This document shows positions 8,465-40,978 of a DNA stretch of 64,000 nt, in pieces. Both the position numbers and the translations under genes were made by a program. Where the stretch lies: assembly GCA_035758925.1 (NCBI GenBank), contig DASTVV010000144.1, positions 1,281-65,280 on the forward strand, given 5' to 3'. The notes under the pieces are model-generated. The model worked only from the letters and a program-made list of their open reading frames with translations. It was not told the origin of the DNA and made no database searches. Each line of letters opens with the position of its first letter. Position 1 is the stretch's first letter. The stretch comes from Gemmatimonadaceae bacterium (GTDB taxonomy: Bacteria > Gemmatimonadota > Gemmatimonadetes > Gemmatimonadales > Gemmatimonadaceae).

Positions 8465-9846
8465 AACGGCCGACGGCGGACCACGAGGCGGAGCTAAAGG
8501 CGGATCTGACTGCCGACCTGAAGGCGGGCGTCAGGTCCGATGTAAGCTCCGAACTCAGGTCCGATGTAGGATCCGATGTTCGGTCCGCCGTTTTGGGTTA
8601 TCGGTGGCGGATCGTCGCGCTGCTCTTCTTCGCGACCACGATCAACTACGTCGACCGCCAGGTGCTGGGCATCCTCGCGCCGACGCTGCAGCGCGAGCTG
8701 AGCTGGAGCGAAACCGACTATGGCGCGATCGTGTCGTGGTTCAGCTTCGCGTACGGCATCGGCCTGCTGCTCACCGGGCGTATCCTCGACGCCGTGGGCA
8801 CACGCATCGGGTTCTCGGTGGCCATCGTCACGTGGAGTTTCGCGGCGATGGCCCACGCGATCGCCCGCTCGGTCACCGGCTTTGGACTCGTGCGAGGACT
8901 TCTTGGCCTCGGCGAGTCCGCGAACTTTCCCGCGGCGATCAAGACCGTGGCGCAGTGGTTCCCGCAAAAGGAGCGAGCGCTGGCCGTCGGGATATTCAAC
9001 GCCGGCAGCAACGTCGGTGCGATCGTGGCGCCGCTCGTTGTACCATGGATCGCGCTGACGCTGGGGTGGCGCTGGGCGTTCATCATCACCGGAGCGATCG
9101 GCTTCGTGTGGCTGGTGTTCTGGCTGGCCACGTATCGCGAACCGGAACATCACGCCCGAGTGTCACGGGAAGAATTGCAGCACATTCGCCGCGATGAAAC
9201 GCGCGAAGTCACCAGCACCTCGAATGACGTCTCGTGGCTCCAGGTGTTGCGCCAGCGCCAGACGTGGGCGTTCGTCGTCGGAAAGACGATGACGGATCCG
9301 GTGTGGTACTTCTATCTGTTCTGGCTCCCGAAGTTTCTCGACACGAGCTTCGGCGTGCAGCTCAAGGGCTTGGCGGCGCCGCTCATCGCGATCTATCTCG
9401 TCGCGGACGTCGGTTCCGTAGGCGGCGGGTGGATCTCCAGCTGGTTCCTCACACGCGGCTGGAGCGTGAACCGCAGCCGAAAGACCGCGATGCTGATCGC
9501 GGCGCTGTTGATCGCGCCCACGATGTTCGCGCCGCGGGCGCAAAGCTTATGGATAGCGGTGGCATTGGTGAGCGTCGCCGCCGCGGCGCACCAGTGGTGG
9601 TCGGCGAACCTGTTCACGACGGTGAGCGACCTGTTCCCGCGCCGCGCCGTCGCGACCGTGGTCGGCATCGGCGGGTTCGGAGGCGCCATGGCAGGCATGG
9701 CGTTTCAGCGAGGGACGGGACGTCTCCTCGACGCCACGCATGGCAATTACGCCCCGATCTTCGTGGTGTGCGGGCTCACCTACCTCGTCGCGCTCGCGAT
9801 CGTGCATCTCCTGGTGCCGCGCATGCGCCCGGCGAGACTCGAATAA
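8461..9846 (+). CDS. exuT: MFS transporter, hexuronate transporter (ExuT)-like
   Basis: ATGA overlap with the kdgK stop. [27 protein letters not shown]...DYG is the ExuT/ACS-family N-terminus, followed by about 12 TM segments. The first 44 codons are a repetitive segment (see repeat 8473..8591). An in-frame TTG at 8593 is an alternative start. Confidence 0.85.
8473..8591. repeat. imperfect 120-nt palindrome built from two opposed arrays of 12-nt tandem repeats
   Basis: A perfect 10-nt inverted repeat ACGGCGGACC (8473-8482) / GGTCCGCCGT (8582-8591) flanks the element. Left: 5 units of about AAGGCGGAnCTG. Right: 5 units of about AGGTCCGATGTA (8533-8544 and 8557-8568 are identical). The cores CGGAnCT / AGnTCCG are complementary. 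TTTT follows. Confidence 0.75.
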
Positions 9847-9854
9847 TCCGAGCA

Positions 9855-10044
9855 GGGGACCGGGGACACGGGACAAGGGACAAAGGCAACTGACTGGGGA
9901 ACAGAGAAGGGGAATGGTTGACGGATGAGGTGATGCCTCGTCCCCGTCCTTCCATTCCCCTTCTCCGTTCCCCTTTCCCGAGTCAGTTGCCCGTGTCCCG
10001 TGTCCCGTGTCCCGTGTCCCATGTCCCATGTCCCATGTCCCCGG
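9855..10044. repeat. long imperfect hairpin of opposed heptamer tandem repeats (GGGACAN)n / (NTGTCCC)n; G-quadruplex/i-motif prone
   Basis: The left arm 9855-9917 and right arm 9952-10044 are near reverse complements (shared GGCAACTGACT...GAGAAGGGGAATGG, one 7-nt indel). The right arm carries CCCGTGT x4 plus CCCATGT x3 plus CCCC (8 C3 tracts, 9990-10042). The left arm has 4 G3-4 tracts. The loop is about 34 nt. Confidence 0.85.
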
Positions 10045-10118
10045 TCAATCGTTGACAGCACCCGGGCTTCGGCCCAATGATGGCATTAATAAGGTGACTT
10101 GGCGACATTAGAGGCCCC

Positions 10119-11363
10119 ATGAAAATCATCGACGTCCGCGCCACCCCTGTGACCGTGCCGCTCGAGGCGCCGCTGCGCCATGCGAACGGCTGTCACTGGG
10201 GTCGCTTCGTGCGTACGATCGTCGAGGTCGAGACGGACGACGGCATCGTGGGGCTGGGGGAGATGGGTGGCGGCGGGGAAACCGCCGTCGCTGCTTTCCA
10301 GGGGCTCAAGTCGTACCTGGTTGGTCGCGATCCGTGCAGGCTCGAGGAGATGCGCTTCCTCATCGCGAATCCAACCGCCTCCCTCTACAACAACCGAACG
10401 CAGATCCTGGCGGCGCTCGAGTTCGCGTGCCTCGACATCATGGGGCAGAAATGGGGCGTCCCCGTGTGCGACATCCTCGGTGGACGGATGCGCGACTACG
10501 TGCCATTCGCCTCATACCTGTTCTTCCGCTACCCCAACGTCGACAACGGTGCGGGCGAGATCCGGACGTGCGATCAGCTGGTCGACGAAGCCAAGCTGCT
10601 CAAGAAGCGGTACGGCTTCACGACGCACAAGCTGAAGGGTGGCGTGTTCAACCCGAAGTACGAGTTGGAGTGCTATCGCGCGCTTGCCGAGTCCCTTCCC
10701 GGCGACAGCTTCCGTTTCGATCCGAATGGCGTGTGGTCGGCGGAGCAAGCCATCTGGTTCGGGCGTCACATCGAGGGGTTGAACAACGACTACCTCGAGG
10801 ACCCTGTCTTCGGCATGCACGGCATGCGGCGCACGCGTGAGAAAGTGAAAATGCCGCTCGCGACCAACACGGTCGTCGTCGGCTTCGAGCAGCTGGCGGC
10901 CAACGTGCTGCACACGGCCGTGGACGTCATCCTCCTCGACACGACGTTCTGGGGCGGCATCCGCCCGTGTCTCAAGGCGGCCTCTATCTGTGAAGCGTTT
11001 CAGCTGGGTGTCGCGGTCCATTCGTCCGGCGAGCTCGGGATTCAGCTCGCGACCATGCTGCACCTTGGCGCGGCGTTGCCCAACCTGACGTTCGCGGCGG
11101 ACGCGCACTATCACCATCTCAAGGACGACGTCATCGTTGGCGGCAAGCTGCAGTACTGCCGCGGCGCGATCCCGGTGCCCACTGCGCCCGGACTTGGCGT
11201 GAAGCTCGACCGCGAACGCCTCGGAACGTATCATGAGTTGTTCTGCCGGCTGGGTCCTTACCCGTACGACCAGGATCCGCTGCGGCCCGGTTGGACGCCG
11301 CTCGTTCCCAACGAGCGTTGGGCCGATCCCGCTGACGCGCGCGTCCCGCACGTCCCGCTCTAG
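10119..11363 (+). CDS. enolase-superfamily acid-sugar dehydratase, glucarate dehydratase (GudD)-like
   Basis: Collinear with E. coli GudD from memory: [27 protein letters not shown] (KxK), [25 protein letters not shown]. 414 aa, with an AGAGG RBS before the ATG. Confidence 0.85.
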
Positions 11364-14892: not shown

Positions 14893-14893
14893 C

Positions 14894-17492: not shown

Positions 17493-18532
17493 TGAAGAAT
17501 GTCGTGCGCCTTGGTGCGCTCACCCTGGCGGGTCTGCTCGCGATCGCCTGCGTTGGCGGCGACAAGGGCCAGTCGGCCGACACCGCGCAGGCCGCCGCGG
17601 GGAAACCGGGTGATACCATCACCATCGCGATGATCGCCAAGAGCTCGAACAATCCCGTCTTCCTGGCGGCGCGTACGGGCGCCGAAGAAGCCGCTCGCGA
17701 TCTGTCGAAGAAGCATGCGATCACCGTCAACGTCCTCTGGTTGACGCCACCGCAGGAAGATGGTCAGGTGCAGGCGCAGCGTATCCAGCAGGCCGTGAAC
17801 GACGGCGCGGACGCGATCCTCATTTCGTGCAGCGACGCCGGCAAGGTGACAGGCGCGATCAACGACGCGGTGGCCCGGGGCGTCGCCGTGATGACGTTCG
17901 ACAGCGACGCGCCCGCGTCGAAGCGCTTTGCGTACTATGGCGTGGACGACGTCAAGACGGGCCAGCAGACCATGGCCGAGTTGGCGACGATCATGAATGG
18001 CAAGGGCAAGGTCGCGATCCTCGCGGGCAACCAGAACGCGCCCAACTTGCAGAACCGGGTGCGCGGCGCGAAGGAAGAGGCCGCGAAGCACCCCGGCATG
18101 CAGGTGGTTGGCACGTTCAACCACATCGAGACGCCGCAGGATGCGGCAGCCGAAGTGATTCGCGTGAACAACGCGTATCCCGAGATCACCGGCTGGGCGA
18201 TGATCGGCGGCTGGCCGCTGTTCACGCAGTCGCTGCTCACGGATCTCGATCCCAAGCGCATCAAGGTCGTCTCGGTCGACGCGCTGCCGGCGGAGCTCGC
18301 GTACGTGGACAAGGGCGTCGTGCCGGTCCTGCTGGCGCAGTCGGTCTACAAGTGGGGCTCGGTTGGCGTCGAGACGATCGTGGACAAGGTGCACTTCAAG
18401 AAGGACGTCCCGGCGGTGATTCCCATGGAGCTGGTGCGCGTGAGCAAGGACAACCTGGGTGAATGGTCGCGGCAGCTGAAAGCCTGGGGCTTCACCGATG
18501 TCCCCGCGGCGTACCTCAGTCTCAGCAAGTAG
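17492..18532 (+). CDS. sugar ABC transporter substrate-binding lipoprotein (type I PBP, RbsB/XylF-like)
   Basis: TGATG overlap with the permease stop. MKNVVRLGALTLAGLLAIAC has a lipobox. IAMIAKSSNNPVF...DAILIS... pattern of the periplasmic sugar-binding fold. The track ORF 16772.. is an out-of-frame N-terminal artefact over the permease. Confidence 0.85.
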   Translation: MKNVVRLGALTLAGLLAIACVGGDKGQSADTAQAAAGKPGDTITIAMIAKSSNNPVFLAARTGAEEAARDLSKKHAITVNVLWLTPPQEDGQVQAQRIQQAVNDGADAILISCSDAGKVTGAINDAVARGVAVMTFDSDAPASKRFAYYGVDDVKTGQQTMAELATIMNGKGKVAILAGNQNAPNLQNRVRGAKEEAAKHPGMQVVGTFNHIETPQDAAAEVIRVNNAYPEITGWAMIGGWPLFTQSLLTDLDPKRIKVVSVDALPAELAYVDKGVVPVLLAQSVYKWGSVGVETIVDKVHFKKDVPAVIPMELVRVSKDNLGEWSRQLKAWGFTDVPAAYLSLSK

Positions 18533-18650
18533 GGCTTACCAGCGGCTTTAACTAAGGCTTTTAGGCGGTTTTAACAGCGGCTTTAGCAGCGGCGGAGTTG
18601 TTCGCATTTGGACCGCAGTCAAAGCCGCAGTCAAAGCCGTAGTCAAATCC
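18532..18650. repeat. opposed arrays of about 12-nt tandem repeats forming an imperfect hairpin, inside the ABC operon
   Basis: Left: 5 units with GGCTT(T/A) cores at 18533, 18544, 18556, 18567 and 18579 (period 11-12). Right: CCGCAGTCAAAG x2 (18613-18636, identical) plus CCGTAGTCAAAT. The reverse complement of the right units (GCGGCTTTGACT) matches the left units (GCGGCTTTAACT / GCGGCTTTAGCA). Confidence 0.75.
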
Positions 18651-18651
18651 C

Positions 18652-20136
18652 GTGACTAATTTCGCAGTCCGATTCGAGTCCGTCAGCAAGAGCTTTCCCG
18701 GCGTGCAGGCGCTGTCCGACGTTTCGATTGACGTCGCGGCGGGGTCGTGTCACGCGCTGTGCGGCGAGAACGGTGCCGGCAAGAGCACGCTGGGGAAGAT
18801 TCTCGCCGGCATCTACGCGCCGGACGGCGGTCGGCTGGTCGTTGGCGGCCGCGACGTCCGCTTCACCAGTCCGCGCGACGCGCTCGCCGCGGGGATCGGC
18901 ATGGTGCACCAGGAACTCGCCTTCTGCGCCAACATGTCGGTGGCCGAGAACCTCTGTCTCGGAGCGCTGCCGTCGACGCGCGGGTTTCTGAGCCGCTCGC
19001 GGATGCGTGCGCGCGCGTCGGACATGCTGGCGGAAATCGGCGCCACGATCGACGTCGACGGTGTGCTCGGCGAGCTCAGTGTCGCGCAGCAGCAACTGGT
19101 GCAGATCGCGGCGGCGGTCGGCGGCGGCGCTCGCGTGATCATCTTCGATGAACCCACCAGCAGCCTGAGCCAGCGCGAAGCCGACCGCCTGTACGAGCTG
19201 ATCGCGCGGCTCCGGCAGCGCGGCGCGACCTGCCTCTACGTCTCGCATCGTCTGCCCGAGGTCTTTCACCTGTGCGACACCGTCAGCGTGCTGCGCGACG
19301 GGCGCCACGTGTCCACGCGGCCCGCGAAGGACCTGACGCAGGACGAGCTGGTGCAGTTGATGATCGGGCGGCCGTTGGCCCAATACCTTCCCGCGCCGCC
19401 AAGTGCCGGCACGCCAGAGGAAGTGCTGCGCGTCGAGAAGCTTTCGTCGCCTGGCAAGCTGCACGACATCTCGTTCGCGCTGCATGCGGGCGAAGTGCTG
19501 GGAATCGCGGGCCTCGTCGGCGCCGGCAGATCGGAGCTGGCGGCTGCGCTGTTCGGACTCGATCCCGGTGCGCGCGGGGCCGTTCGCATTGCGGGACGCG
19601 AGCAACGGCCAAGCACGCCCGGGGACGCCATCCGCCGTGGCCTTGGCCTGGTGCCGGAGGATCGCAAGAAGCAGGGACTGGTGGGCTCCGCCAGCAGCCT
19701 GCACAACGCGTCGCTCGCGATCCTCGGCCGGCTGTCGCGGTGGTCGTGGCTGCGGCGCCGCATGGAGCGAAACGTCGTGCGTGGATTCTTCGAGCAGCTG
19801 CGCGTGAAGTCCACACTGGACACGACGGTGGCCAGCCTGTCCGGCGGGAATCAGCAGAAGATCGTGTTGGCGCGATGGCTGGCGGCGCGTTCGCGTGTCC
19901 TGATTCTCGACGAGCCCACGCGCGGCGTGGATGTGGGCGCAAAAGCCGAGATCCATGCGCTCATCGGCCAGTTGGCATCGCAGGGGTCGGCGATTCTGCT
20001 GATCTCGAGCGAGTTGCCCGAAGTGCTGGGTCTCGCGACGCGCATCCTCGTGCTGCGCGCGGGCCGGCTCGTGGCCGAAGTCCCGCGCGAAGCGGCGACT
20101 CAGGACGGCCTGCTGCGGTTGATGGCCGGTCTCTGA
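18652..20136 (+). CDS. sugar ABC transporter ATP-binding protein (duplicated ATPase, RbsA/XylG-like)
   Basis: GTG start. Walker A GENGAGKST, LSVAQQQLV signature, a second half with LSGGNQQKIVLARWL, and ILDEPTRGVD. 494 aa. Confidence 0.9.
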   Translation: MTNFAVRFESVSKSFPGVQALSDVSIDVAAGSCHALCGENGAGKSTLGKILAGIYAPDGGRLVVGGRDVRFTSPRDALAAGIGMVHQELAFCANMSVAENLCLGALPSTRGFLSRSRMRARASDMLAEIGATIDVDGVLGELSVAQQQLVQIAAAVGGGARVIIFDEPTSSLSQREADRLYELIARLRQRGATCLYVSHRLPEVFHLCDTVSVLRDGRHVSTRPAKDLTQDELVQLMIGRPLAQYLPAPPSAGTPEEVLRVEKLSSPGKLHDISFALHAGEVLGIAGLVGAGRSELAAALFGLDPGARGAVRIAGREQRPSTPGDAIRRGLGLVPEDRKKQGLVGSASSLHNASLAILGRLSRWSWLRRRMERNVVRGFFEQLRVKSTLDTTVASLSGGNQQKIVLARWLAARSRVLILDEPTRGVDVGAKAEIHALIGQLASQGSAILLISSELPEVLGLATRILVLRAGRLVAEVPREAATQDGLLRLMAGL

Positions 20137-20210
20137 GCGGACCTCCGTAGGGGAAAGCCGGGCCCAATAACCCTCGGTCCGTCCGGCTGGTCACATGTCC
20201 CGCCACGCTC

Positions 20211-20239
20211 TTGACAGTTTTTGCCGAGGTAATCACTAT
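20211..20239 (+). promoter_or_regulatory. candidate sigma70-type promoter for the second SusC/SusD pair
   Basis: TTGACA (20211-20216), a 17-nt spacer, then CACTAT (20234-20239). It lies 145 nt upstream of the SusC start. Pattern match only. Confidence 0.35.
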
Positions 20240-20383
20240 CGGTCACCTTATCACCTTGTAACATTACGAACACGCCGGTGCGCATTGCCCTCACTGGCGC
20301 ACGCTGGGCAGGCCGCAGGACCCGGATTTTGTCCTTCCCCTATACAAATCCGGATCAAAACCACGTCTTCTGGAGGACTCCCG

Positions 20384-23300
20384 ATGGGACGGCGGATTTG
20401 GCTTCTCCTTCTCGTACTGTGTGGCGTTTCCGCGGCGCATGCACAGGGCACGGGCCGCATCAATGGCGTTGTCACCGCCGACGGGAAGGCCGTGCTCGGC
20501 GCCACCGTCACCGTGGTCGGCCTCAATCGCAACGTGACGGCCGACGCCCAGGGCCGGTTCAGTCTCAGCGATGTTCCCGTGGGGACGCGCCAGGTGCAGG
20601 CGCGCCTTCTTGGCTATGGGGCCGTCACTCAGACTGTCACCGTCGCAGAGGGCCAGACCGCGACGGTCAACTTCGAGCTGGTGCGCAAGGCGGTTCAGCT
20701 CGAGGGCATCGTGACGACGGGTTATGGCACCCAGGAACGGAGCCGCGTCGTCGGGGCAATCTCGTCCGTGCAGTCCACGCAGATCGCCGAGATCCCCACG
20801 CACGATCCGATCAAGGCCATCCAGGGTCGCGTGCCCGGCGTCGAGATCGTCGCCGCGAGCAACCTGCCCGGTGCAGAGATGAACATGCGCATTCGCGGCA
20901 TTCGGTCCATCTCGGCGACCAACGAACCCCTGATCGTTCTGGACGGTGTGCCGATCGCAGGCGGAATCGCGGACTTCAGCGCCACGAACATCGAGTCAAT
21001 CGAGGTCCTGAAGGACGCTGCGGCGACGGCGATCTACGGAACCCGTGGCGCCAACGGCGTGGTGCTCATCACCAGCAAGAGCGGGTCGACGGGGACGCGC
21101 ACGCGCTTCTCATCGAACCTGTACTACGGCCAGCAGAAGGCCATCCGGCTCGCGGACATGATGAACATGCAGGAGTTCGTGGCCATGATGAAGGCGGCCG
21201 GTGTCTACATGAACTTCGCGGACACCACCGTGAATGGTGTGCTGCCTTATCCCGAGCAGCGAGCCGCGTATGCCGCCGGGCAGTTCACGGACTGGCAGCG
21301 GGCAGTGCTTCGGACCGGCGCGCAGCGCAACTATGACATGGGCATGAACGGCGTTTCCGGGAATACGCGCTTTGCGCTGGCGGGGAGCCTCTTCGATCAG
21401 GATGGCCTGACACTCGGACAGGCATACCAGCGCACGAACGGCATGGCGTCCGTCGATCATACGCTTGGCCGTCTCCGACTCGGCGTCACGGCAAACGCCA
21501 CGCGCTCGAAGCAGGAAACCGGTTCAGGAGACGGGTTGTGGGGCGTCGCGCTCGCGCAGACCGGATTCGGTCTCCCCTACGATGCCAGCGGTGGGCTGAT
21601 CACGCGGCCGGACGGAGAACCGCTCTCCGTCAATCCGCTTCGAATGCAGCAACTCGACATCGGCCAGACGACGCGCAATCGCGTTTTCGGCTCGCTGTTC
21701 TCGGACCTTCAGATCGCGCCGGGTGTGAACTGGCGCGTGAACTTCGGTCCTGACATCACGTTCTTCAACGTGGGTCGCTTCCAGGCGCCCGAGGTCACTC
21801 CGCCTACCACGGTGACGTTCTCGCGCGGAAGCCTACGGCAGCAGGAGAACTTCGCTTATACGCTGGATAACATCCTCCAGCTCACCCGCGACCTCGGCAC
21901 CTCGCATCACTTCGATGCGACGCTGCTCCACAGCGTGGCGAAGAGTCGCACGACCGTGGACTCCCTGTCTGCCCGCAACATGCCCAGCTCGGCCTCGCTG
22001 TGGTATGCGCTCCAGACCGGACAGATCGAGGGTCAGCAGTCCAACCTGTCCGAGATCGCGAACGAGTCGGTCATGGGGCGGCTGAACTACACGTTCCTCG
22101 ATCGTTACACCCTCAGCGCAGCGATGCGTCGTGACGGCGGCAGCGTGTTTGCCAAGGGCCACAAGTGGGCAGACTTCCCTTCGGTCGGCCTGGCCTGGCG
22201 AATGAGCGAAGAGTCGTTCATGCGCAGGTTTGACTTCGTGAGTTCCGCCAAGGTGCGCGGCAGCTATGGCGTGACTGGAAATACTGGCATCAACGCCTAC
22301 CAGTCCCAGGGGGCACTGCTCCGGGCGCCGTACAACTTCGGCGCCGTGAGTGGCATCGGCTTCGGACCGAACCAGGGCAATCCGGAAAACCCGAACCTCA
22401 CGTGGGAGAAGACGTACCAGGCCGACGTCGGCGCCGAGCTCGGATTCCTCGGCGATCGCATCACGACGGTGATCGACTGGTACCGCCAAAACACCAAGGA
22501 TCTTCTGCTAACCCGCGTTCTCCCCGCAACAACGGGTTACACCTCGACCCTGCAGAACATCGGCGAGACGTTGAACAACGGTCTGGAGCTGCAGCTGTCC
22601 ACGCTCAACGTCCGCAACTGGCACGGCATCAGCTGGAACACGGACATCAACTGGGCGCACAACCACAACGAGATCGTCAAGCTGGCGACTTCCGACACGA
22701 CGGGATGCCCGATCAACGCCCGCCCGTGCGATCTCAACAACCGCTGGTTCATCGGGCAGCCCATCAACATCGGTGCAACGGCGAACACCCCGTGTACCGA
22801 CCGGCAGCGCTGCGTGTGGTACGACTACAAGTTCGACGGCATCTGGCAGTATGCCGACACGGCGCTGGCCAGAAGCATGGGACAGTGCGCTGCTACGACG
22901 GCCATAACGGCCTGTCCCTTCAAGCCGGGCGAGATCCGACTCGTGGATGTCAACGGTGATGGAAGAATCACTCCCGGCGGCGATCAGGTCATCCTCGGCA
23001 ACACATTCCCCAAGTGGACCGCGAGCGTCTACAACCGCGTCACGTGGAAAAACTTCGACGCGTCGGCTCTCGCCACGATCAAGTGGGACTACACGATCTT
23101 CGACAGCTTCGGACAAGGCGGCAATCAGATGCAAGGACGCTTCGGTGCTCTGGATCTGCCGTACTGGACCAAGGAGAACCAGTCCAACGTTGCGCCAGCG
23201 CCGCGTCTCAGTGGCAACCCGGTGCCCTACAACGCCACGCGCTTTTACAGGGACGGCTCGCACTGGCGTATCAGGAACATCTCCGTCGGGTATACCGTGC

Positions 23301-23473
23301 CGCAGCAGTATCTCAACCGCCTGCGGTTGAACGCCGGAGAGGCGCGGCTGTACGCGATCGCGCAGGAGCCCAAGGTCTTCACGGATTACAAGGGTCCCGA
23401 TCCGGAGAACGGAACGACAGCTGGTGCTCCCGCCGTCCGCACGCTTCTCGTTGGCATCAACCTCGGATTCTGA
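20384..23473 (+). CDS. SusC/RagA-type TonB-dependent outer-membrane receptor
   Basis: GGAGGA RBS, then MGRRIWLLLLVLCGVSAAHA signal. Carboxypeptidase-regulatory-like N-domain (GRINGVVTADGKAVLGATVTVVG...GRFSLSDVP). Plug (IESIEVLKDAAATAIYGTRGANGVVLITSKSG). Large barrel ending LVGINLGF. Confidence 0.92.
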   Translation: MGRRIWLLLLVLCGVSAAHAQGTGRINGVVTADGKAVLGATVTVVGLNRNVTADAQGRFSLSDVPVGTRQVQARLLGYGAVTQTVTVAEGQTATVNFELVRKAVQLEGIVTTGYGTQERSRVVGAISSVQSTQIAEIPTHDPIKAIQGRVPGVEIVAASNLPGAEMNMRIRGIRSISATNEPLIVLDGVPIAGGIADFSATNIESIEVLKDAAATAIYGTRGANGVVLITSKSGSTGTRTRFSSNLYYGQQKAIRLADMMNMQEFVAMMKAAGVYMNFADTTVNGVLPYPEQRAAYAAGQFTDWQRAVLRTGAQRNYDMGMNGVSGNTRFALAGSLFDQDGLTLGQAYQRTNGMASVDHTLGRLRLGVTANATRSKQETGSGDGLWGVALAQTGFGLPYDASGGLITRPDGEPLSVNPLRMQQLDIGQTTRNRVFGSLFSDLQIAPGVNWRVNFGPDITFFNVGRFQAPEVTPPTTVTFSRGSLRQQENFAYTLDNILQLTRDLGTSHHFDATLLHSVAKSRTTVDSLSARNMPSSASLWYALQTGQIEGQQSNLSEIANESVMGRLNYTFLDRYTLSAAMRRDGGSVFAKGHKWADFPSVGLAWRMSEESFMRRFDFVSSAKVRGSYGVTGNTGINAYQSQGALLRAPYNFGAVSGIGFGPNQGNPENPNLTWEKTYQADVGAELGFLGDRITTVIDWYRQNTKDLLLTRVLPATTGYTSTLQNIGETLNNGLELQLSTLNVRNWHGISWNTDINWAHNHNEIVKLATSDTTGCPINARPCDLNNRWFIGQPINIGATANTPCTDRQRCVWYDYKFDGIWQYADTALARSMGQCAATTAITACPFKPGEIRLVDVNGDGRITPGGDQVILGNTFPKWTASVYNRVTWKNFDASALATIKWDYTIFDSFGQGGNQMQGRFGALDLPYWTKENQSNVAPAPRLSGNPVPYNATRFYRDGSHWRIRNISVGYTVPQQYLNRLRLNAGEARLYAIAQEPKVFTDYKGPDPENGTTAGAPAVRTLLVGINLGF

Positions 23474-23491
23474 GCCGACTCCACCCTCACA

Positions 23492-25468: not shown

Positions 25469-25507
25469 CGGGGGGCGGCAGTTGCTCAACGCATGACAGG
25501 TTGGTCA

Positions 25508-25554
25508 ACGGCCTCCGGTCGCGAACATGCTCGCTCGTGACCGGAGGCCGTTTC
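25508..25554 (+). terminator. Rho-independent terminator-like hairpin after SusD
   Basis: Perfect 13-bp stem ACGGCCTCCGGTC (25508-25520) / GACCGGAGGCCGT (25539-25551) with an 18-nt loop, followed by TTTCG. Confidence 0.6.
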
Positions 25555-25655
25555 GTCCCGGCGTCGCGGAGGGTCAGTGCCACCTTCGTTGCCGGTTCTC
25601 ATCGCGCCGGCCCGCCACGCATATTGGCACTGTTATCCCGAAGCTCTGACGGATC

Positions 25656-28010: not shown

Positions 28011-28043
28011 ACGTCGTGCTCGTCGTTAAATCGCGCTCGAAAT

Positions 28044-28122
28044 GCGGAATGGGAATGGGAGATGGGAATGGGTCGGAAACAGCATTAGTTGGCCCCATTC
28101 CCATTCCCTTTCCCCATTCCGC
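28044..28122. repeat. hairpin of opposed GGGAAT-type short tandem repeats; G-quadruplex prone on both strands
   Basis: The left arm GCGGAATGGGAATGGGAGATGGGAATGGG (28044-28072) matches the reverse complement of the right arm (28094-28122) at 23/29 positions, with a 21-nt loop. Each arm carries 4 G3 (or C3) tracts. It shares GGGGAATGG with the 9855 element. Confidence 0.8.
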
Positions 28123-28148
28123 CGTTCGTATCTCCTGAGGATTCGCGC

Positions 28149-29666
28149 ATGAAGCTCTCGTTCGTCGAGAAAGCCGGATACAGCCTGGGAGACGCAGCCG
28201 CCAACTTCGTCTTCCAGACGATGATCCTGTTCCAGCTCAATTTCTACACGGACACGATGGGCCTTGCGGCGGCGGCCGCGGGAACGATGCTGCTGATCGG
28301 CCGCCTGTGGGATGCGTTCTTCGACCCGATGATGGGCGTGCTGGCCGACCGCACGAACACGCGCTGGGGCAAGTTCAGGCCGTGGGTCCTGTGGACGGCG
28401 TTGCCATGGGGCGTCGTGCTCGTGCTGGCGTACTCGGTGCCGAACGTCAGCTCGTCGTCCAAGCTGATCTATGCGCTGGGCACCAATCTCGTCCTCATGA
28501 CGCTCTATTCGGCGAACAACACGCCGTATTCGGCGATGAGCGGGGTGATGACGGGTGATACGGCCGAACGCACGAAGCTTTCCTCATATCGGTTCGTCGC
28601 CGCCATGCTCGCCCAGCTTGCGGTTGGCGGGTTCACCCTGCCGCTCGTCGCAAAGTTGGGCCATGGCAACAACGCGCAGGGATGGCAGAGCACCATGACC
28701 CTGTGGGCGACGATCTGTGTGGCGTGCTTCGTGATCACGTTCCTCACCACGCGCGAGCGCATCCAGCCGCCGCCGCAGCAGAAATCCGACGCGAGAGCCG
28801 ACTTCCGGAATCTCGCGGCCAATGGTCCATGGATCGCGATGTTCGTGCTGACGCTCGTCCACTTTGCGTACCTGGCGATGCGCGGCGGCACGATGTTCTA
28901 CTACTTCAACTACTACGTCGACCAGGGACAACTCCTCGCGTTCCTGCAAGGCATCGGCCTCCCCGTGGCGACGGCCGCGCTTCCGGACGGCGGCCATCCG
29001 CTGATGAACACGTTCGGGCTGATCATCAACGCCGACCACTCGAACGTCGCCGGCGTCGGCTTCAGCCTGTTCAACATCGTGAGCCAGGCCGTTACCGTGC
29101 TTGGCGTGATCGCCTCGACCATCCTCGCGGCCAGATTCGGCAAGCGTGCGGTGGCACTCGTCGGTTTTGCGCTCACAACGGTGTTCGGGGCCGCATTCAT
29201 CCTGCTGCCTGCCGGCTCCGTCCAGGCGACGTACGGACTCGAGATCGTCCGCGCGCTGGCTTATGCGCCGACCATTCCACTCATCTGGGCCATGTTCGCC
29301 GACGTCGCGGACTTCTCGGAGTGGAAGACGGGACGGCGTGCCACCGGCGTCGTGTTCGCCACCATCCTGTTCGCGCTCAAGACCGGCCTGAGTCTCGGCG
29401 GCGCGATGGCGGGGTGGCTGCTGTCCGCGTACGGATACCAGGCGAACGCCACGCAGACGGTGAACGCGCTGCTCGGCATTCGGCTCACGATCAGCGTCTT
29501 CCCGGCGATTCTGATGGCCGTCGTGGTCCTCTGCCTCGCGCGGTACAGGATCGGCAGGCAACTCGAGGGGCAGATTGCGTCGGAGCTCGAGCAGCGGCGC
29601 CGCGCGTATGCGGACGCCGCGCTACCACCTTCTTCGGGAGGGAAGCCCCGTGTCGCCGCGCTGTAG
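28149..29666 (+). CDS. glycoside-pentoside-hexuronide (GPH):cation symporter, xyloside/oligosaccharide transporter-like
   Basis: ATG at 28149. YSLGDAAANFVFQ...FYTD..GL.....G....GRLWDAFFDPMMG..ADRT.TRWGKFRPW is the MelB/YicJ/XynT-type signature. About 12 TM segments. Confidence 0.88.
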   Translation: MKLSFVEKAGYSLGDAAANFVFQTMILFQLNFYTDTMGLAAAAAGTMLLIGRLWDAFFDPMMGVLADRTNTRWGKFRPWVLWTALPWGVVLVLAYSVPNVSSSSKLIYALGTNLVLMTLYSANNTPYSAMSGVMTGDTAERTKLSSYRFVAAMLAQLAVGGFTLPLVAKLGHGNNAQGWQSTMTLWATICVACFVITFLTTRERIQPPPQQKSDARADFRNLAANGPWIAMFVLTLVHFAYLAMRGGTMFYYFNYYVDQGQLLAFLQGIGLPVATAALPDGGHPLMNTFGLIINADHSNVAGVGFSLFNIVSQAVTVLGVIASTILAARFGKRAVALVGFALTTVFGAAFILLPAGSVQATYGLEIVRALAYAPTIPLIWAMFADVADFSEWKTGRRATGVVFATILFALKTGLSLGGAMAGWLLSAYGYQANATQTVNALLGIRLTISVFPAILMAVVVLCLARYRIGRQLEGQIASELEQRRRAYADAALPPSSGGKPRVAAL

Positions 29667-35489: not shown

Positions 35490-35519
35490 TTGACACCAAG
35501 TGACCAGATGACCTAAAAT
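35490..35519 (+). promoter_or_regulatory. candidate sigma70-type promoter for glnK-amtB
   Basis: TTGACA (35490-35495), an 18-nt spacer, then TAAAAT (35514-35519), 22 nt before the GTG start of the P-II gene. Confidence 0.45.
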
Positions 35520-37335: not shown

Positions 37336-38400
37336 ATGGTCTGGGAACAACGCTGGCATCCACTCCGGCGCGAGTGGGTCGTGGTCACCTCGCACCGGGA
37401 CAATCGGCCCTGGCGTGGAGCGGTCGTGGAGCACGCGCGGCCGCCGCTGCCGCCATACGTTGCCGACTGCTACCTGTGTCCCGGGAACGAGCGCGTGTCC
37501 GGCCGTCGAAACGCCGCGTATTCCGGCGTGTTCGTCTTCGACAACGACCACCCCTGCGTCGGCCCTGAGGCGCCGACGGACCTCGAGTCGCCAGCGGGCA
37601 TCTACCGTAACAGGCCGGCCGCGGGCCTCTCGCGCGTCGTCTGCTTCTCGCCGCGCCACGACGTCACGCTCGCGGAGCTGCCACAGGACGAGATCGTGAG
37701 CCTGCTGGTGACGCTCCAGGACCAACAGCGCGATCTGAGTTCGCGGGACGAGATCCGCAACGTCCTCATGTTCGAGAACAAGGGCGAGGTGGTGGGGGTC
37801 AGCAACCCGCATCCGCACTGCCAGATCTACGCGACGAACTTCGTCTTCAGGACCATCGAGCTCGAAGCCGAGGCTGGCGAGGAATACCTGCGTCAGAACG
37901 GCCGAGTGCTCTTTCAGGATGTCCTTGCAGCCGAGGAAGCGGATGGGCGCCGGATGATCGTTGGCGGCGCCGAGGATGCGGCGCGTGGAAGGACGCGATC
38001 CGCGGTTGCGTTCGTCCCCTACTTTGCGCGCTACGCGTACGAGACGTTCGTTGCTCCGCGGGCCACACACGCGAGCATCGCCGGTCTGTCGCGCGGCGAG
38101 ATCGACGACCTGGCCGCGGTGCTCCGCGAAACGCTGATACGGCTGGAGAATCTCTGGTGCATGCCGTTGCCGTACGTCCTGGTGCTGCACCAGGCACCGA
38201 CGGACGGTCGCCAATACCCCGGCTTTCACTTTCACATCGAGATCTATCCACCGCTGCGGAAGCCCGGGCTGCTCAAGTACCTCGCCGGCCCTGAAATTGG
38301 CGGCGGCAACTTCCTCAACGACACGTCGCCTGAAGCAAAGGCGGCCGAGCTCCGCGCCGTGTCGAGGGTGCACTACAAACATCGCGGCGCTCATGCGTGA
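37336..38400 (+). CDS. galT: galactose-1-phosphate uridylyltransferase-like (class I HIT)
   Basis: Zn motif CYLCPGNER and active-site HPHCQIYA (His-Pro-His). About 354 aa. Confidence 0.85.
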
Positions 38401-39424
38401 GGGGGGAGGAGCGACGGACGCGAAAGTGCTGCTCGAACCGCTGCTCGCGCTGCACGACCGCATCCGCGACGCGGTGCTCCGCGCCTGCGAGCAACAGTCC
38501 TCGGCCGACCTTTCCGCGGTTGCCAGTGACGATACGTCCCCTGGCGACACGATCTACGCGATCGATCGCGTTGGCGAAGCGGCGCTCGAGGAAGGCCTCG
38601 CGGAGATCGCGCTCACCGAGCCATTGGTCCTGGTGGCGGAGGGCTTGGCCGGCGGCAAGCTGGTTCTACCCCGCGGCACGTCCGAGAGCGGATGCCGCTG
38701 GCGAATCCTCATGGATCCGATCGACGGTACGCGCGGGCTGATGTTCCAGAAGCGCAGCGCCTGGATTCTCACCGGCGTTGCGCCGAACAAAGGCGATCAT
38801 ACACGGTTGCGGGACATTACGCTTGCGGTGCAGACCGAGATTCCGCTTCTCAAGCAGCACCTCGGCGACCAGCTTTGGGCAGTGCGCGGCGGCGGCACAC
38901 AGGCGCGACGGTTCGATCGTGTGTCTGGTCGAACTGCACCGCTCACGCTGCGACCGTCCCGGGCAGGCACAATCGAACACGGGTTCTCCACGGTCGTGCG
39001 ATTCTTTCCCGGCGCTCGCGACGTTCTCGCCGCCGTCGACGATGATCTGGTGCTCGCGGTGCTGGGACCTCCGCCGGCGGGCCGCGCCGCCTGCTTCGAG
39101 GACCAGTATGCATCCACGGGCGGCCAGCTTTACGAGTTGATGGCGGGTCACGACCGTTTCATCGCTGATCTGCGACCGCTCACGATGGCGGTTCTCGCGG
39201 AGCGCGGGCTCCCGCAGCCCCTCTGCTGTCACCCGTACGACGTTTGCGCGTCATTGATCGCGGAGGAGCTGGGGGTGGTCGTCACGGACGCCTTCGGCGC
39301 GCCGCTGGACGCTCCGTTCGAGCTGGAAAGCGATGTTGCATGGATCGGCTATGCGAACGCCCAGCTTCGTGCGGTTCTCGAACCCCAGCTGCGCTTGGCC
39401 CTGCGACAGCGGAAACTGAGCTGA
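38393..39424 (+). CDS. inositol monophosphatase/FBPase-family phosphatase-like protein
   Basis: The ATG at 38393 overlaps the galT 3' end by 8 nt. Metal-binding motif [11 protein letters not shown] and a C-terminal [19 protein letters not shown] (divergent WD-x-AAG-like motif). Confidence 0.7.
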
Positions 39425-39443
39425 TGACGCCCAAGACTGACAC

Positions 39444-40916
39444 ATGCGACTCCACCGTCGGTCGGACCTGAGCGCCGGCGAAGCGTCGCTGTTTGACGCA
39501 GCGCTGTCGCGCCTTGCCGCGATGCCCGCGGATCCTGACGACCGGATTCGCACGTTCCTCTCTCCGCAAAAACCGACGTACATCGGACGCGCTCCCGGCC
39601 GCCTGGACGTCATGGGTGGGATAGCGGACTACAGCGGAGCGCTCGTGCTGGAGATGCCGCTCGATCGCGCCACGTTCGCTTTCGTCCAGCGCCACCCATC
39701 GATGCGGTGTGAGATTGCCACCCGGCGCGACAACGCCTGGCAGTTTTTCGCGATCGAGCTGACGCGGCTACTCTCGGGCGACCTGCGTGACCCGGCGAGC
39801 CTCGCCGACAGGTTTGCCAAGGGAGACCCGGCCGACGCGTGGGCGGCATACGTGGTGGGAGTCGTTCAACTTTGCGCAGAGCGCGCCGACGTCACTGCTC
39901 TCGTTCGCGGCGGCTTTCGCATCCTGATCGATTCCAGCGTGCCCGAAGGAAAGGGCGTGAGCTCGTCGGCCGCGCTCGAAGTGGCGGCAATGTCAGCCGT
40001 CGCTGCGGCCCTCGACGTGCCCGTGGGTGCGTCGGACATCGCCACGGCGTGCCAGTGGGTGGAGAATCACATCGTCGGCGCACCGTGCGGCATCATGGAC
40101 CAGATGACGAGTGCGTGCGGCCGACGCGACCGGCTGCTGCGCTTGCGCTGTCAGCCAGCCGTCGCCGACGGATTCGTCAGCGTCCCCTGGGGCTTCCGAT
40201 TCTTCGGCATCGATTCCGGTGTGAAGCACGCTGTGTCCGGCAGCGCCTACGGGCGCGTGCGCACGGCGGCGTTCATGGGTTATCGCATCATCGCGGAGCG
40301 CGCGGGCCTCAAGGCATCGGTGGACGGTCACGGTCGCGCCCACGTGGACGATGCTCGCTGGCGCGGCTATCTGGCCAACATCCCGCTCGCCGACTTCGCG
40401 CGCTTCGAGTCCGAGCTTCCAGTCGAAATGATGGGCTCGGACTTCCTCGCGACGTACGGCGGCACCACCGACAACGCCACGCGCGTCCGGCCCGACGAGC
40501 GCTATGCAGTGCGCGCGGCCACCGCGCATCCGGTGAACGAGCAGGATCGTGTCGACCGCTTTGCCCGGCTGCTGCCGGACTTGTCCCGGGCCGACGCAAC
40601 CCGAGAGCTGGGGCAACTCATGCTCGATTCACACGCCAGCTACAGCGCGTGCGGACTGGGCTCCCCCGAGACGGATCGTCTGGTTGAGATGGTGCGGGAC
40701 GCTGGTCCGGAACGCGGTTTGTTCGGCGCCAAGATCACCGGCGGAGGCAGCGGCGGCACAGTCGCGATACTCGGCCGCGCCGACGCCGAGACAGTGGTCC
40801 GGGATATCGCCGCGCGCTACGCAGCGGAAACCGGACTGTCGGCCGAGCTGTTCCTCAATTCGGGTCCCGGTGCCGAGGAAACCGGAGTATTACTTCTCGA
40901 TTCTCACGACGCCTGA
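39444..40916 (+). CDS. GHMP-family sugar-1-kinase, L-arabinokinase-like rather than canonical GalK
   Basis: GRAPGRLDVMGGIADYSGALVLEMPL (GalK has GRVNLIGEHTDY here), GHMP motif II SSVPEGKGVSSSAALEVA, and motif III KITGGGSGGTV. 490 aa. Confidence 0.8.
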   Translation: MRLHRRSDLSAGEASLFDAALSRLAAMPADPDDRIRTFLSPQKPTYIGRAPGRLDVMGGIADYSGALVLEMPLDRATFAFVQRHPSMRCEIATRRDNAWQFFAIELTRLLSGDLRDPASLADRFAKGDPADAWAAYVVGVVQLCAERADVTALVRGGFRILIDSSVPEGKGVSSSAALEVAAMSAVAAALDVPVGASDIATACQWVENHIVGAPCGIMDQMTSACGRRDRLLRLRCQPAVADGFVSVPWGFRFFGIDSGVKHAVSGSAYGRVRTAAFMGYRIIAERAGLKASVDGHGRAHVDDARWRGYLANIPLADFARFESELPVEMMGSDFLATYGGTTDNATRVRPDERYAVRAATAHPVNEQDRVDRFARLLPDLSRADATRELGQLMLDSHASYSACGLGSPETDRLVEMVRDAGPERGLFGAKITGGGSGGTVAILGRADAETVVRDIAARYAAETGLSAELFLNSGPGAEETGVLLLDSHDA

Positions 40917-40978
40917 CGCATCACGCATGCAGACGCATGGCGGATGACGCATGCTGACGCATGGCGAATGACGCATGT
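40914..40978. repeat. 24-nt tandem repeat x about 2.7 (GACGCATG-rich) between convergent genes
   Basis: ATCACGCATGCAGACGCATGGCGG (40920-40943), ATGACGCATGCTGACGCATGGCGA (40944-40967), then ATGACGCATG... (40968-). The core GACGCATG occurs 5 times, plus one CACGCATG variant. Contains GCATGC palindromes. Confidence 0.8.

Follow-up and report, generated by a model that had tools for sequence, protein, structure and literature searches.

Hairpins with tandem-unit stems near gene ends in Gemmatimonadota DNA

The window (the whole 64,000-nucleotide stretch of Gemmatimonadaceae DNA analysed here) contains seven sites of interest, five of them tandem arrays (J1 to J5):

8472–8592, plus strand: J1, degenerate head-to-head arrays of 12-nt units (sequence, TRF, folding, relatives, Pfam).
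9852–10046, plus strand: J2, a composite hairpin 3′ of the MFS stop codon (9846) (TRF, inverted-repeat finder, folding).
10052–10081, plus strand: promoter-like TTGACA-18-AATGAT, just 3′ of J2 (sequence).
18533–18647, plus strand: J3, 12-nt units GGCTTTnACnnn in about five copies, a loop, then CCGCAGTCAAAG in 2.9 copies (TRF, inverted-repeat finder, folding).
25507–25552, plus strand: comparison hairpin, a plain 18-bp GC-rich stem (inverted-repeat finder, z −4.2).
28033–28148, plus strand: J4, (GGGAAT) ×5, a 21-nt loop, then (CCCATT) ×4.3 (TRF, inverted-repeat finder, folding).
40908–40977, unstranded: J5, a direct-only array of TGACGCATG-type units with period 24/14/10 (TRF, folding).

A sequence-only reading of the window had described five junctions of one design. 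Four of these, J1 to J4, are head-to-head arrays that form long hairpins, with stem energies spanning ΔG −41 to −131 kcal/mol. They have neither units nor termini in common and yield no shared consensus, which agrees with the earlier view that the unit sequences are unrelated and that no single REP, BIME or MITE family occupies the window.

J1 is made up of five GGCGGA-core units followed by five TCCGA/TCCGCC-core units. TRF returned an array in the 3′ arm only (8531–8587) and none in the 5′ arm, which is a degenerate repeat. The main stem (8472–8592) is a branched hairpin of 43 bp at −70 kcal/mol, and folding gave −70.7 kcal/mol (z −5.4 against dinucleotide shuffles). The MFS_1 transporter gene starts at ATG 8461, overlapping the PfkB kinase stop (ATGA). 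Because the frame from this ATG stays open across the repeat, and because all relatives encode a variable tail of 25–45 aa ahead of a conserved G(R/Y)YRW motif, J1 is, as judged from its reading frame, coding rather than intergenic and part of the transporter's variable N-terminal tail; its 12-nt period equals four codons. The placement of every site at a gene junction thus stands for J2 to J4, which lie between genes, and not for the site at 8473.

In J2 the outer arms comprise about four copies of (GGGACAN) at 9855–9883 and 7.4 copies of (CCCRTGT) at 9990–10041 (by TRF, GGGACAA ×3 at 9863–9883 and CCCGTGT ×7.4 at 9990–10041), and they enclose an inner palindrome (9884–9989) with GGGGAAN units of its own. 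The arms differ in copy number and pair in several registers at 86–94% complementarity; both are G4/i-motif-type sequence. The main stem (9852–10024) is 71 bp at −131 kcal/mol, and the segment 9847–10060 folds at −135.5 kcal/mol (z −12.4 against dinucleotide shuffles). Downstream of the promoter-like site lies an enolase-superfamily gene (ATG 10119), and relatives carry at the equivalent spot a TTGACA with a conserved operator-like TCATAAGGTCAATTGATGAC-like motif. This site follows J2 directly and so assigns J2 to the end of the MFS transcription unit.

J3 fills the gap between the stop of a sugar-binding-protein gene (18532) and the GTG of an ABC ATPase gene (18652); in six of seven relatives the same junction is just 10–59 nt. 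TRF detects the 12-mer ×4.9 at 18536–18593 and ×2.9 at 18613–18647, the main stem (18542–18640) is 33 bp at −41 kcal/mol, and folding gave −46.2 kcal/mol (z −3.3 against dinucleotide shuffles). A binding-protein/transport-gene junction like that of J3 is reportedly the classic site of mRNA-stabilising REP hairpins, as described by Newbury and colleagues in 1987. J4 lies between a GH3 glycosidase gene (stop 28010) and an MFS_2 symporter gene (ATG 28149), with TRF arrays of AATGGG ×5 (28041–28072) and CCCATT ×4.3 (28094–28120). Its main stem (28033–28148), with a canonical G4 motif as the 5′ arm, is 42 bp at −56 kcal/mol, and folding gave −54.2 kcal/mol (z −3.8 against dinucleotide shuffles). 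The inverted-repeat finder also paired the arms of J2, J3 and J4, with complementarity of 75–81% over 59–65 nt, 78% over 27 nt and 80% over 35 nt.

J5 spans the convergent gap between a GHMP kinase stop (40916) and the end of a minus-strand GFO/IDH/MocA oxidoreductase gene (40979). No fold beyond chance was found in it (z −0.45, the fold being matched by 68 of 200 shuffles). J5 is neither a hairpin nor a member of the class, and the view of it (at 40914) as a one-orientation variant of the hairpin design is not borne out. The hairpin at 25507–25552 follows a SusD-like gene and has no tandem units. It had been counted (at 25508) as the only conventional terminator, and even that count is, if anything, generous: the stem has just a weak TTT tail, and a stem-plus-T-tract scan gave 25 sites in 60 kb against some 32 expected from shuffles, none at a gene end in the correct orientation. 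Canonical terminators in the window are not above chance.

We scanned 1.99 Mb, comprising the window and 160 related loci (mostly Gemmatimonadota, in a sample leaning toward sugar-acid catabolism), for pairs in which a short-unit array is followed at no more than 200 nt by a reverse-complement array. Inverted pairs numbered 24 and same-sense pairs one; shuffled sequence gave 1–2 inverted and 0–2 direct pairs. Of the 24 pairs, 22 lie outside called genes in DNA that is 92% coding, and all 24 have co-directional gene neighbors, where about 74% is expected from gap types. The tandem-unit hairpin design is genuine and non-random. The 143 intergenic arrays of this set represent 116 distinct units, which supports the earlier suggestion that what recurs is structure, not sequence.

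The median distance from the upstream stop to the element is 8 nt, and from the element to the next start 47 nt. None of the 24 falls in a divergent gap, a class making up about 17% of all gaps, and none at convergent gene ends, which is weak evidence as only about two would be expected there. There is also an orientation bias: G exceeds C in the promoter-proximal arm of 19 pairs, versus 5 (p=0.0066), and that arm is rich in purines in 17 pairs versus 6. Short-unit arrays in general are 4.8 times denser outside genes than inside, with periods of 7–10 predominating. The elements are present sporadically: in most relatives the orthologous junction is short and holds none, so that any function must be dispensable or easily replaced.

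Sporadic presence is also what might be seen if the elements were neutral, functionless by-products of slippage-prone non-coding DNA and of quasi-palindrome perfecting under weak selection. The decay of the 3′ arm in some copies (L143, L158) fits this idea, as does the enrichment of many kinds of array outside genes, the direct-only array at 40908 included; RNA-specific covariation was not found. We nonetheless judge it decidedly unlikely: divergent gaps should then hold some elements, neither the G-rich-arm-first order relative to transcription nor a median of 8 nt after stop codons is expected, and stems of 33–71 bp would be costly to replicate if useless.

Copy numbers are unequal between arms (for example 3 vs 7.4, 15.9 vs 6.8 and 9.4 vs 4.4), and alternative pairing registers reach at least 85% complementarity. 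At four loci (L145, L148, L152, L084) unit variants are mirrored across both arms, and Longimicrobium copies show a compensatory G-C to A-T change at the stem base. Another locus, L048, holds three or four different units inside 20 kb, with an element within a translated N-terminal tail. No RNA-specific signal emerged from the comparison of strands, sense and antisense folding being equal (13 vs 11, p=0.37), with 75 and 65 G-U pairs respectively. No consistent T-tract lies 3′ of the 24 stems (mean 3.3 T per 12 nt).

The absence of sense/antisense asymmetry, together with arms that are nearly perfectly Watson–Crick, accords with a role at the level of DNA. The elements would then be arrays of sites on both strands that a nucleoid-associated protein or a global regulator binds, or cruciforms, G-quadruplexes or i-motifs acting on supercoiling, replication or transcription. 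The G4 potential noted earlier is real: two of the 5′ arms are canonical G4 motifs, and of the window's six G4-motif loci the arms of J2 and J4 supply four. In vitro, repeats of the GGGAATC type fold into G4 (PMC4692102), and paired tandem sites in Geobacter were taken by their authors as global-regulator or IHF/HU sites (PMC2700814). We consider a DNA-level role very unlikely, however, as G-runs are absent from J1, J3 and most elements of relatives, units vary by junction within one genome such that no single sequence-specific protein fits, and the arm-order bias (19 vs 5) with solely co-directional placement suggests that the elements are read during transcription.

It is possible, if unlikely, that the elements are non-autonomous mobile or dispersed repeats, REP-like or MITE-like, with one family per unit type and copies elsewhere; gene-end position would then stem from where insertion is preferred or tolerated rather than from function. 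Dispersed families do exist in some relatives. One, CTCACRCAGAG-based, occurs in Longimicrobium MAGs with conserved termini CTCACRCAGAG...CTCTGYGTGAG at L002 (twice), L003, L010 and L011; the loop of one copy encloses another repeat hairpin. Another, CACAAAAAGG, belongs to a lower-GC lineage, where GCCACAAAAAGGCACAAAAAGCAC... hairpins follow the stop codon directly; seven contigs carry them, each at three or more junctions. The claim that the elements are not one mobile family therefore holds within the window and fails for these relatives. Sporadic presence at orthologous junctions is consistent with mobility, elements in Xanthomonas and Geobacter form a single or few families per genome, and a 64-kb view of the source genome leaves room for further copies. 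Against this stand the four window elements without common units or termini, the several units of L048 and the 116 distinct units among 143 arrays. Target-site duplications or array-independent terminal inverted repeats were not noticed in an unsystematic look, a transposase or RAYT-like gene is absent by Pfam from the ten junction-flanking genes, and unequal arm copy numbers demand in-place slippage anyway.

REPs are conserved imperfect palindromes of 20–40 nt with a GTAG-type head; they reach hundreds of copies and are moved by RAYT transposases. They are said (Newbury in 1987; Liang, Rudd and Deutscher in 2015) to stabilise upstream mRNA, to attenuate transcription and to cut translation when less than about 15 nt from the stop. 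Like the REPs and BIMEs of enterobacteria and pseudomonads, the elements are intergenic hairpins that follow stops and separate cistrons, for example genes for binding proteins and membrane components, and by analogy may work alike; REP arms, however, are not tandem arrays, and the window elements lack a consensus. Architecturally the closest analogues are the Foldback transposons of eukaryotes (Drosophila FB and its relatives), which are kilobase-scale, transposase-mobilised, and have short tandem units in long inverted arms of unequal length around a variable middle; no evidence of transposition was found for the elements here. Long GC-rich stems without a T-tract after genes also recall the hairpin-only 'I-shaped' terminators of high-GC bacteria, although those are ordinary unique palindromes and not tandem-unit stems with several registers. 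In Actinobacteria long stems often lack a U-rich tail, and a 3′-end stem-loop is present whether or not termination is factor-dependent (PMC13613805).

Closer precedents mean that the class itself is not new, contrary to the supposition that no such design had been described. Xanthomonas genomes each contain 70–75 inverted pairs of GGGAATC heptamer arrays, stem-loop capable and situated between aligned ORFs near the upstream one (Rehm et al. 2015, PLoS One, PMC4692102). [quoted passage not shown] The elements here share with them the closely spaced opposite arrays of variable copy number, the capacity for stem-loops and G4, and the intergenic position between aligned ORFs, nearer the upstream one, with a G-rich sense array near the stop; the units of J4 (GGGAAT) and J2 (GGGACAN) resemble GGGAATC. 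Xanthomonas has one genome-wide unit family, whereas the window has four unrelated units, 6, 7 or 12 nt long, inside 20 kb, and relatives have 116 distinct units in 143 arrays. Most elements here, moreover, are not G-run sequences, and their stems are longer and, in J2, composite.

The cyanobacterial STRR (short tandemly repeated repetitive) heptamer sequences, said to have been described originally by Mazel et al. in 1990 and Vioque in 1997, likewise comprise tandem units able to form a hairpin between co-transcribed genes. At hupS–hupL, 7-bp repeats form an intercistronic hairpin proposed to serve transcript stability or translational coupling, its function not being established (PMC2670836). 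STRRs are a few defined dispersed families typical of heterocystous cyanobacteria, in contrast to the locus-specific units of 6–12 nt period in another phylum here. The 'paired sites on opposite strands' of Geobacter metallireducens, about 50 in all and each made up of 3–5 tandem 7–9-nt units, fall into three classes, GTTGCTYN ×4 (24 pairs), TCTCCGTS[Y] ×3 (21 pairs) and MTYCTGA ×5 (8 pairs), with variable spacing and often between genes of one operon, such as proB–proA (Aklujkar et al. 2009, PMC2700814). Tandem units on opposite strands and several unit classes in one genome are common to both systems; the Geobacter sites have tens of copies per class and were not read as RNA hairpins. Given these three precedents, the design is not lineage-specific, contrary to one earlier proposal.

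Our preferred reading, to which we assign a probability of about one half, is that the elements are transcribed gene-end hairpins with tandem-unit stems, a 3′-end role, and an origin in slippage and inverted copying. The data themselves show the anatomy of the elements, their departure from chance, their placement, orientation bias and unit diversity, and their sporadic gain; transcription, a role in termination or stability, and the mutational route are what we infer. The arrays' density outside genes, the unequal arms, the mirrored unit variants and the compensatory change speak for the proposed origin. On the side of a transcribed 3′ end are the co-directional placement close behind stop codons, the arm-order bias, the promoter-like site after J2 with its operator-like motif in relatives, the location of J3 between binding-protein and ABC ATPase genes, canonical terminators that do not exceed chance, and the Xanthomonas GGGAATC arrays, mostly transcribed and obeying the same placement rules (PMC4692102). 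On the other side are equal sense and antisense folding, J1 and L048 in translated tails, sporadic presence, the missing T-tract and, weakly, the lack of elements at convergent ends.

Under the preferred reading, replication slippage would build and resize arrays in non-coding DNA or tolerant coding tails, and inverted copying, for instance intrastrand template switching at a quasi-palindrome, would make or repair the complementary arm. Arms would lengthen and shorten independently, which would explain both the unequal copy numbers and the several pairing registers. A hairpin that succeeds may also, in certain lineages, disperse as a repeat family. The RNA stem would form directly 3′ of the upstream stop codon, where it may terminate or attenuate the upstream transcript and shield the upstream unit from the next promoter, and/or stop 3′-to-5′ exonucleases; factor-independent termination is unproven because no T-tract follows the stems. 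Such hairpins would be a source of 3′-end structure where stem-plus-U-tract terminators are not detectable.

The genes surrounding the sites of interest form a sugar and sugar-acid catabolic set, nearly all on the + strand: a PfkB kinase, an MFS_1 transporter, an enolase-superfamily dehydratase, an ABC sugar system, a SusC/SusD-like pair, a GH3 glycosidase, an MFS_2 symporter and a GHMP kinase. The window has a GC-content of 65% and, at 64 of the contig's 66.5 kb, is the visible part of this genome. The closest proteins are from Gemmatimonadota MAGs (Longimicrobium, Gemmatimonadaceae); the MFS transporter shares approximately 72% identity with its relatives and the enolase-family protein up to 91% (this is the nearest relative, all remaining ones reaching at most 87%).

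The sequence-only reading listed five gene junctions with arrays of short tandem repeats of unrelated units, four of them head-to-head and the fifth a variant with one orientation. In what follows an arm is one tandem array, and an inverted pair is an array together with an array of its reverse complement.

Candidate hairpin sites in the window, with folding energies and z-scores against dinucleotide shuffles
8472-8592, + strand: J1, a degenerate 12-nt form of the head-to-head design; -70.7 kcal/mol, z -5.4
9852-10046, + strand: J2, GGGACAN (about 4 copies, 9855-9883) against CCCRTGT (7.4 copies, 9990-10041); -135.5 kcal/mol, z -12.4
18533-18647, + strand: J3, a 12-mer (4.9 copies, 18536-18593) against its partner (2.9 copies, 18613-18647), between the binding-protein gene and the ABC ATPase gene; -46.2 kcal/mol, z -3.3
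28033-28148, + strand: J4, GGGAAT (5 copies, 28041-28072) against CCCATT (4.3 copies, 28094-28120), between the GH3 gene and the symporter gene; -54.2 kcal/mol, z -3.8
40908-40977: direct array in a convergent gap; z -0.45

Tandem Repeats Finder and an inverted-repeat finder together reveal three clear cases of the design, J2, J3 and J4. J2 is composite: between its GGGACAN outer arms lies a second palindrome (9884-9989) built of GGGGAAN units. All four of J1 to J4 fold far more strongly than dinucleotide shuffles, and their units are indeed unrelated, there being four different ones in the window. The fifth site is not a member: it consists of a direct array between convergent genes and folds no better than chance. 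Its TGACGCATG-type units, each of which contains a GCATGC palindrome, begin at the GHMP kinase stop codon and take up the gap. Of six G-quadruplex-type motif loci across the 64 kb, four are arms of J2 and J4, the motif (G3+N1-7, four times) being matched by the hexamer of J4 with five G-tracts and by the heptamer of J2 with four; J1, J3 and most elements of relatives are without G-runs. No convincing stem-base motif is common to the four hairpins, the only candidate being TCCGCCGTT in J1 and J4, and none of the four has a second copy in the window.

To place these structures against a null model, we scanned 1.99 Mb, comprising the window and 160 related loci sampled via two sugar-acid genes, for arrays with periods of 5-16 nt and at least 2.5 copies (Tandem Repeats Finder) that have a partner array, either reverse complement or same unit, within 200 nt. 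The scan is independent of gene positions; the coding fraction and the gaps come from our own simple codon-usage gene caller. It returned 24 inverted pairs and just one same-sense pair, compared to 1-2 inverted and 0-2 direct pairs in three dinucleotide shuffles. With 92% of the DNA called coding, 22 of the 24 inverted pairs fall outside called genes. All 24 lie between co-directional genes and none between divergent genes, the gaps in the scanned DNA being approximately 74% co-directional, 17% divergent and 9% convergent. The median element begins 8 nt past the upstream stop codon and ends 47 nt before the next start. The promoter-proximal arm has more G than C in 19 of the 24 elements (p=0.0066) and is purine-rich in 17 versus 6. 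The proposed enrichment at gene ends thus holds: the structures are real, statistically robust, tied to gene ends and oriented relative to transcription.

The paired arrays have periods of 6-12 nt, 2.6-15.9 copies and partners 3-130 nt away. Among the most striking are L027 (AGGGTCCTC, 4.2 copies, against ACCCTGAGG, 4.7 copies; -112 kcal/mol), L088 (CGGTGGTC, 9.4 against 4.4 copies; -148 kcal/mol), L092 (15.9 against 6.8 copies) and L045. Short-unit arrays overall are 4.8 times denser outside genes, where periods of 7-10 nt dominate. Some long intergenic arrays of 7 to 16 copies are direct only (L003 159-243, L011 1053-1165, L017 6843-6948, L023 10656-10726, L059 2289-2341 and L098 1420-1504), and the array-pair scan found no reverse-complement partner for them; among the direct-only units are CACCCGTT (10.5 copies), ACGGCTG (15.9), GCCGCCC (10) and GGGGACT (7.6). 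A hairpin-first detector, which folded gaps and sought a dominant stem with periodic arms, was set aside in favor of the array-pair scan: at 65% GC it also scored 41% of coding controls as strong, and non-repeat inner segments diluted the autocorrelation of whole arms.

J1 differs from the remaining hairpins in its relation to the genes. Its interpretation as an intergenic spacer, with the transporter starting at a TTG at 8593, was dropped once the N-terminal tails of relatives were compared. A reading frame opening at an ATG at 8461, which overlaps the kinase stop (ATGA), runs on across the entire repeat and into the transporter. Among 53 relatives, the segment from the kinase stop to a conserved G(R/Y)YRW is either open in frame from the upstream stop or has an in-frame ATG a few codons later, and it encodes a variable tail of 25-45 aa (for example MA...ATGATELAASGALAKIGRYRW). 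In one relative, L048, the equivalent tail contains an unrelated tandem-repeat hairpin, unit CAGAGGA, in frame, with no alternative start codon downstream of it. On the strength of the open frame, the coding tails of relatives and the parallel in L048, J1 is most likely translated; it stands at a gene boundary but is no spacer, sitting within the MFS reading frame. Its period of 12 nt is four codons long, and translation would yield ADLK- and SDVR-like repeats.

More generally, the MFS_1 (hexuronate-type) transporters of this clade (L001-L080 and the window) have a poorly conserved, low-complexity N-terminal tail, whose start often overlaps the stop of the kinase gene upstream as ATGA or GTGA. 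Tandem-repeat hairpin DNA makes up this tail in the window and in L048.

Across the 1.99 Mb, 143 intergenic arrays comprise 116 distinct canonical units, and L048 alone has three or four different units within 20 kb. There are exceptions. A family in Longimicrobium MAGs has a conserved stem base, CTCACRCAGAG...CTCTGYGTGAG, at several loci, with 8-9-nt units in the arms (L002 2142-2284, L002 9226-9499, L003 9523-9651, L010 3863-3953 and L011 6008-6085); in the copy at L002 9226-9499 a second repeat hairpin (ACAGAGGA units) is nested in the center. In a lower-GC lineage (metagenome contigs of 52-58% GC), GCCACAAAAAGGCACAAAAAGCAC... hairpins directly follow stop codons: this family, GCCACAAAAAGGCACAAAAAGCACAAAAG...CTTTTGTGCTTTTTGTGCCTTTTTGTGGC, begins 0-3 nt past the stop, varies in unit number and occupies at least three different junctions (at least three per contig) on seven contigs (L130, L138, L140, L143, L145, L157 and L158). 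The unit diversity, taken with these two families, shows that the phenomenon spans a range from locus-specific units to dispersed families.

The nature of the elements can be narrowed by comparison to known systems. REP and BIME sequences share an imperfect palindrome of 20-40 nt with a GTAG-type head, whereas the window's four hairpins have no sequence in common. Canonical intrinsic terminators consist of a short GC-rich stem-loop and a U-tract, but the stems here lack a T-tract. Unlike CRISPR, with its direct repeats of 24-48 nt and unique spacers, the units are of 6-12 nt, contiguous and arranged as two opposed arrays. On these defining features the elements fall outside all three. For MITEs, which have terminal inverted repeats, a target-site duplication and multiple near-identical copies, the picture is mixed: the Longimicrobium and lower-GC families have multiple copies with conserved ends, inspection by eye showed no target-site duplication at the four window sites, and the relatives have diverged too far to serve as empty sites for comparison. 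Rfam gave no match to the window at gathering thresholds. Its E-value mode, applied to 8400-10200 and 18400-28300 (J2 to J4), returned only eukaryotic miRNA-precursor models, far below threshold and on both strands, which is the signature of any long hairpin.

The sequence-only reading knew of no described class with this design, yet three have been reported. In Xanthomonas, GGGAATC heptamer arrays are 89-93% intergenic, mostly between aligned ORFs and rarely between divergent ones, have a mean distance of 28 nt to the ORF upstream, and form 70-75 opposite-orientation pairs per genome with the potential for stem-loops; the majority are transcribed, and they adopt G4 structures in vitro (Rehm et al. 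2015, PMC4692102). The elements described here share with the Xanthomonas and Nostoc pairs their intergenic position between aligned ORFs, their proximity to the upstream ORF and their scarcity between divergent ORFs. As to the unit, which in the Xanthomonas/Nostoc class is a heptamer rich in G (GGGNATC / GGGGAYT) with four or more consecutive G-tracts and G4-capable, the comparison is mixed: J2 and J4 match the G4 motif, and J1, J3 and most elements of relatives have no G-runs. They differ in that one unit family occupies at least 100 loci there, compared to four unrelated units in the visible 64 kb here, though further copies of each may lie elsewhere in the genome. Geobacter metallireducens has 24, 21 and 8 "paired sites on opposite strands" in three unit classes, each site with 3-5 tandem units of 7-9 nt, read as regulator-binding sites (PMC2700814); opposite-strand pairing at variable distance is common to both. 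In cyanobacteria, STRR heptamers make hairpins between hupS and hupL as well as at other sites, with proposed roles in transcript stability or translational coupling (PMC2670836). J3 and J4 share with STRR a hairpin-forming potential in intercistronic regions of operons, but STRR is a defined dispersed heptanucleotide family, whereas the window's periods are 6, 7 and 12 nt with units unique to each locus. A single locus, L155, carries TTGGTCT, close to the STRR unit TTGGTCA.

Published cases already place the design outside any single lineage: it has been noticed in three other lineages, under different names and without a mechanism. We found no report of such elements in Gemmatimonadota. What sets the present elements apart is the phylum, the 6-12-nt range of periods, the composite and very long stems and, most of all, units that are specific to a locus in a single genome.

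How the arrays evolve is partly legible in the arms. Their unequal copy numbers imply that the two arrays change independently. Arms have several possible pairing registers with complementarity of at least 85%; in L145, L148, L152 and L084 pairing is perfect in register and imperfect in shifted registers, so unit variants are mirrored between arms. Among the Longimicrobium copies a G-C pair of the stem base is replaced by A-T, and some copies elsewhere (L143, L158) have a decayed 3' arm. Orthologous junctions in relatives are mostly short and empty: the gap between binding-protein and ATPase genes is 10-59 nt in six of seven, and the kinase-to-MFS and MFS-to-enolase gaps range from 7 to 176 nt and from 11 to 416 nt. 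The notion that a hairpin is constant at the MFS-to-enolase junction was abandoned after a systematic comparison found most of these junctions short and empty. The elements are gains and losses, not conserved features. We favor an origin by slippage plus an inverted copying step, which would amount to template switching at quasi-palindromes, a process reportedly described by Ripley (1982) and by Dutra and Lovett (2006); in some lineages family-wise spread may have been added.

The placement rules and the strand bias of the arms speak for elements that are read in the course of transcription, since a preferred order of arms relative to gene direction is not expected of a purely symmetric DNA feature. 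Approximately 6 nt past the end of J2 begins a promoter-like TTGACA-18-AATGAT (10052-10081), and relatives have a TTGACA with a conserved operator-like motif at the equivalent position, together probably a promoter plus repressor site. This promoter-like site directly after J2, with similar boxes in relatives, suggests that J2 would close the MFS transcription unit. J3 occupies the position that REP hairpins have in enterobacterial ABC operons. We favor reading the elements as transcribed 3'-end hairpins that would act in termination, attenuation, insulation and/or protection from exonucleases; those within a few nt of a stop codon may also affect translation of the flanking genes.

In window positions 1-60000, stem-plus-T-tract terminators are not above chance (25, compared to approximately 32 expected from shuffles), none of the 25 is at a gene end, and a consensus terminator scan recovers none of J1 to J4. 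Downstream of the stems T content averages 3.3 in 12 nt, with a T-rich tail in L011 only. Published surveys find 3' ends marked by long stems that lack U-tails in some high-GC phyla (PMC13613805), and the absence of a terminator excess in the window fits them. Against an RNA-hairpin function stand the missing T-tract, the dispensability of the elements across relatives, and the lack of any sense/antisense difference: a test for RNA-level selection gave no signal, with both strands folding equally well and G-U pairs balanced.

Several further features of the window were recorded. Within 10052-10118 a conserved TTGACA box is followed by an operator-like motif that reads TCATAAGGTCAATTGATGAC, with variants, one of which is the window's ATTAATAAGGTGACTT, and the combination precedes the enolase-superfamily ("glucarate dehydratase"-like) gene in most relatives (L081-L160). 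Sigma-70-like promoter matches in window 1-60000 are at chance level overall; two good intergenic ones are 10052-10081 and 35490-35519 (TTGACA-18-TAAAAT, divergent gap). At 20195-25552 a SusC-like TonB-dependent receptor with CarboxypepD_reg and Plug domains adjoins a putative SusD-like gene of 653-658 aa, followed by a plain 18-bp GC hairpin (25507-25552); the layout resembles a polysaccharide-utilisation locus, in a Gemmatimonadota-like genome. Gaps left by the gene caller at 4062-4862 and 56441-56851 hold plausible small genes unrelated to the hairpins, namely a lipoprotein-like ORF whose MRSVQRSRFLVLLAAVACSS resembles a signal peptide, and an ORF of 136 aa.

The broadest reading, to which we assign a probability of roughly 0.2, is that a general, sequence-independent process operating in several phyla (Gemmatimonadota, Xanthomonas, Geobacter, cyanobacteria and others) repeatedly makes long multi-register hairpins of tandem units directly after stop codons. 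The process could be hairpin-templated slippage, template switching, or an unrecognised bacterial mobile element of the foldback type; its products would serve as evolvable, length-tunable terminators or insulators where U-tract terminators are lacking, and STRR, the GGGAATC pairs and the Geobacter "regulator sites" would be one phenomenon.

Locus-specific units are the most telling feature: they show that the design can arise in place, with no need of a shared sequence. This ties together what was described separately in Xanthomonas, cyanobacteria and Geobacter, and comparison of strains can then test how the elements arise (slippage plus template switching, or mobility). In practical terms such elements break short-read assemblies and can be mis-called as coding sequence; 8461-8592 is the converse case, a probable coding sequence that resembles a spacer. 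If the stems are working 3'-end signals of Gemmatimonadota, they would explain how transcripts are delimited in a phylum with no detectable canonical terminators, and would give annotators a recognisable mark.
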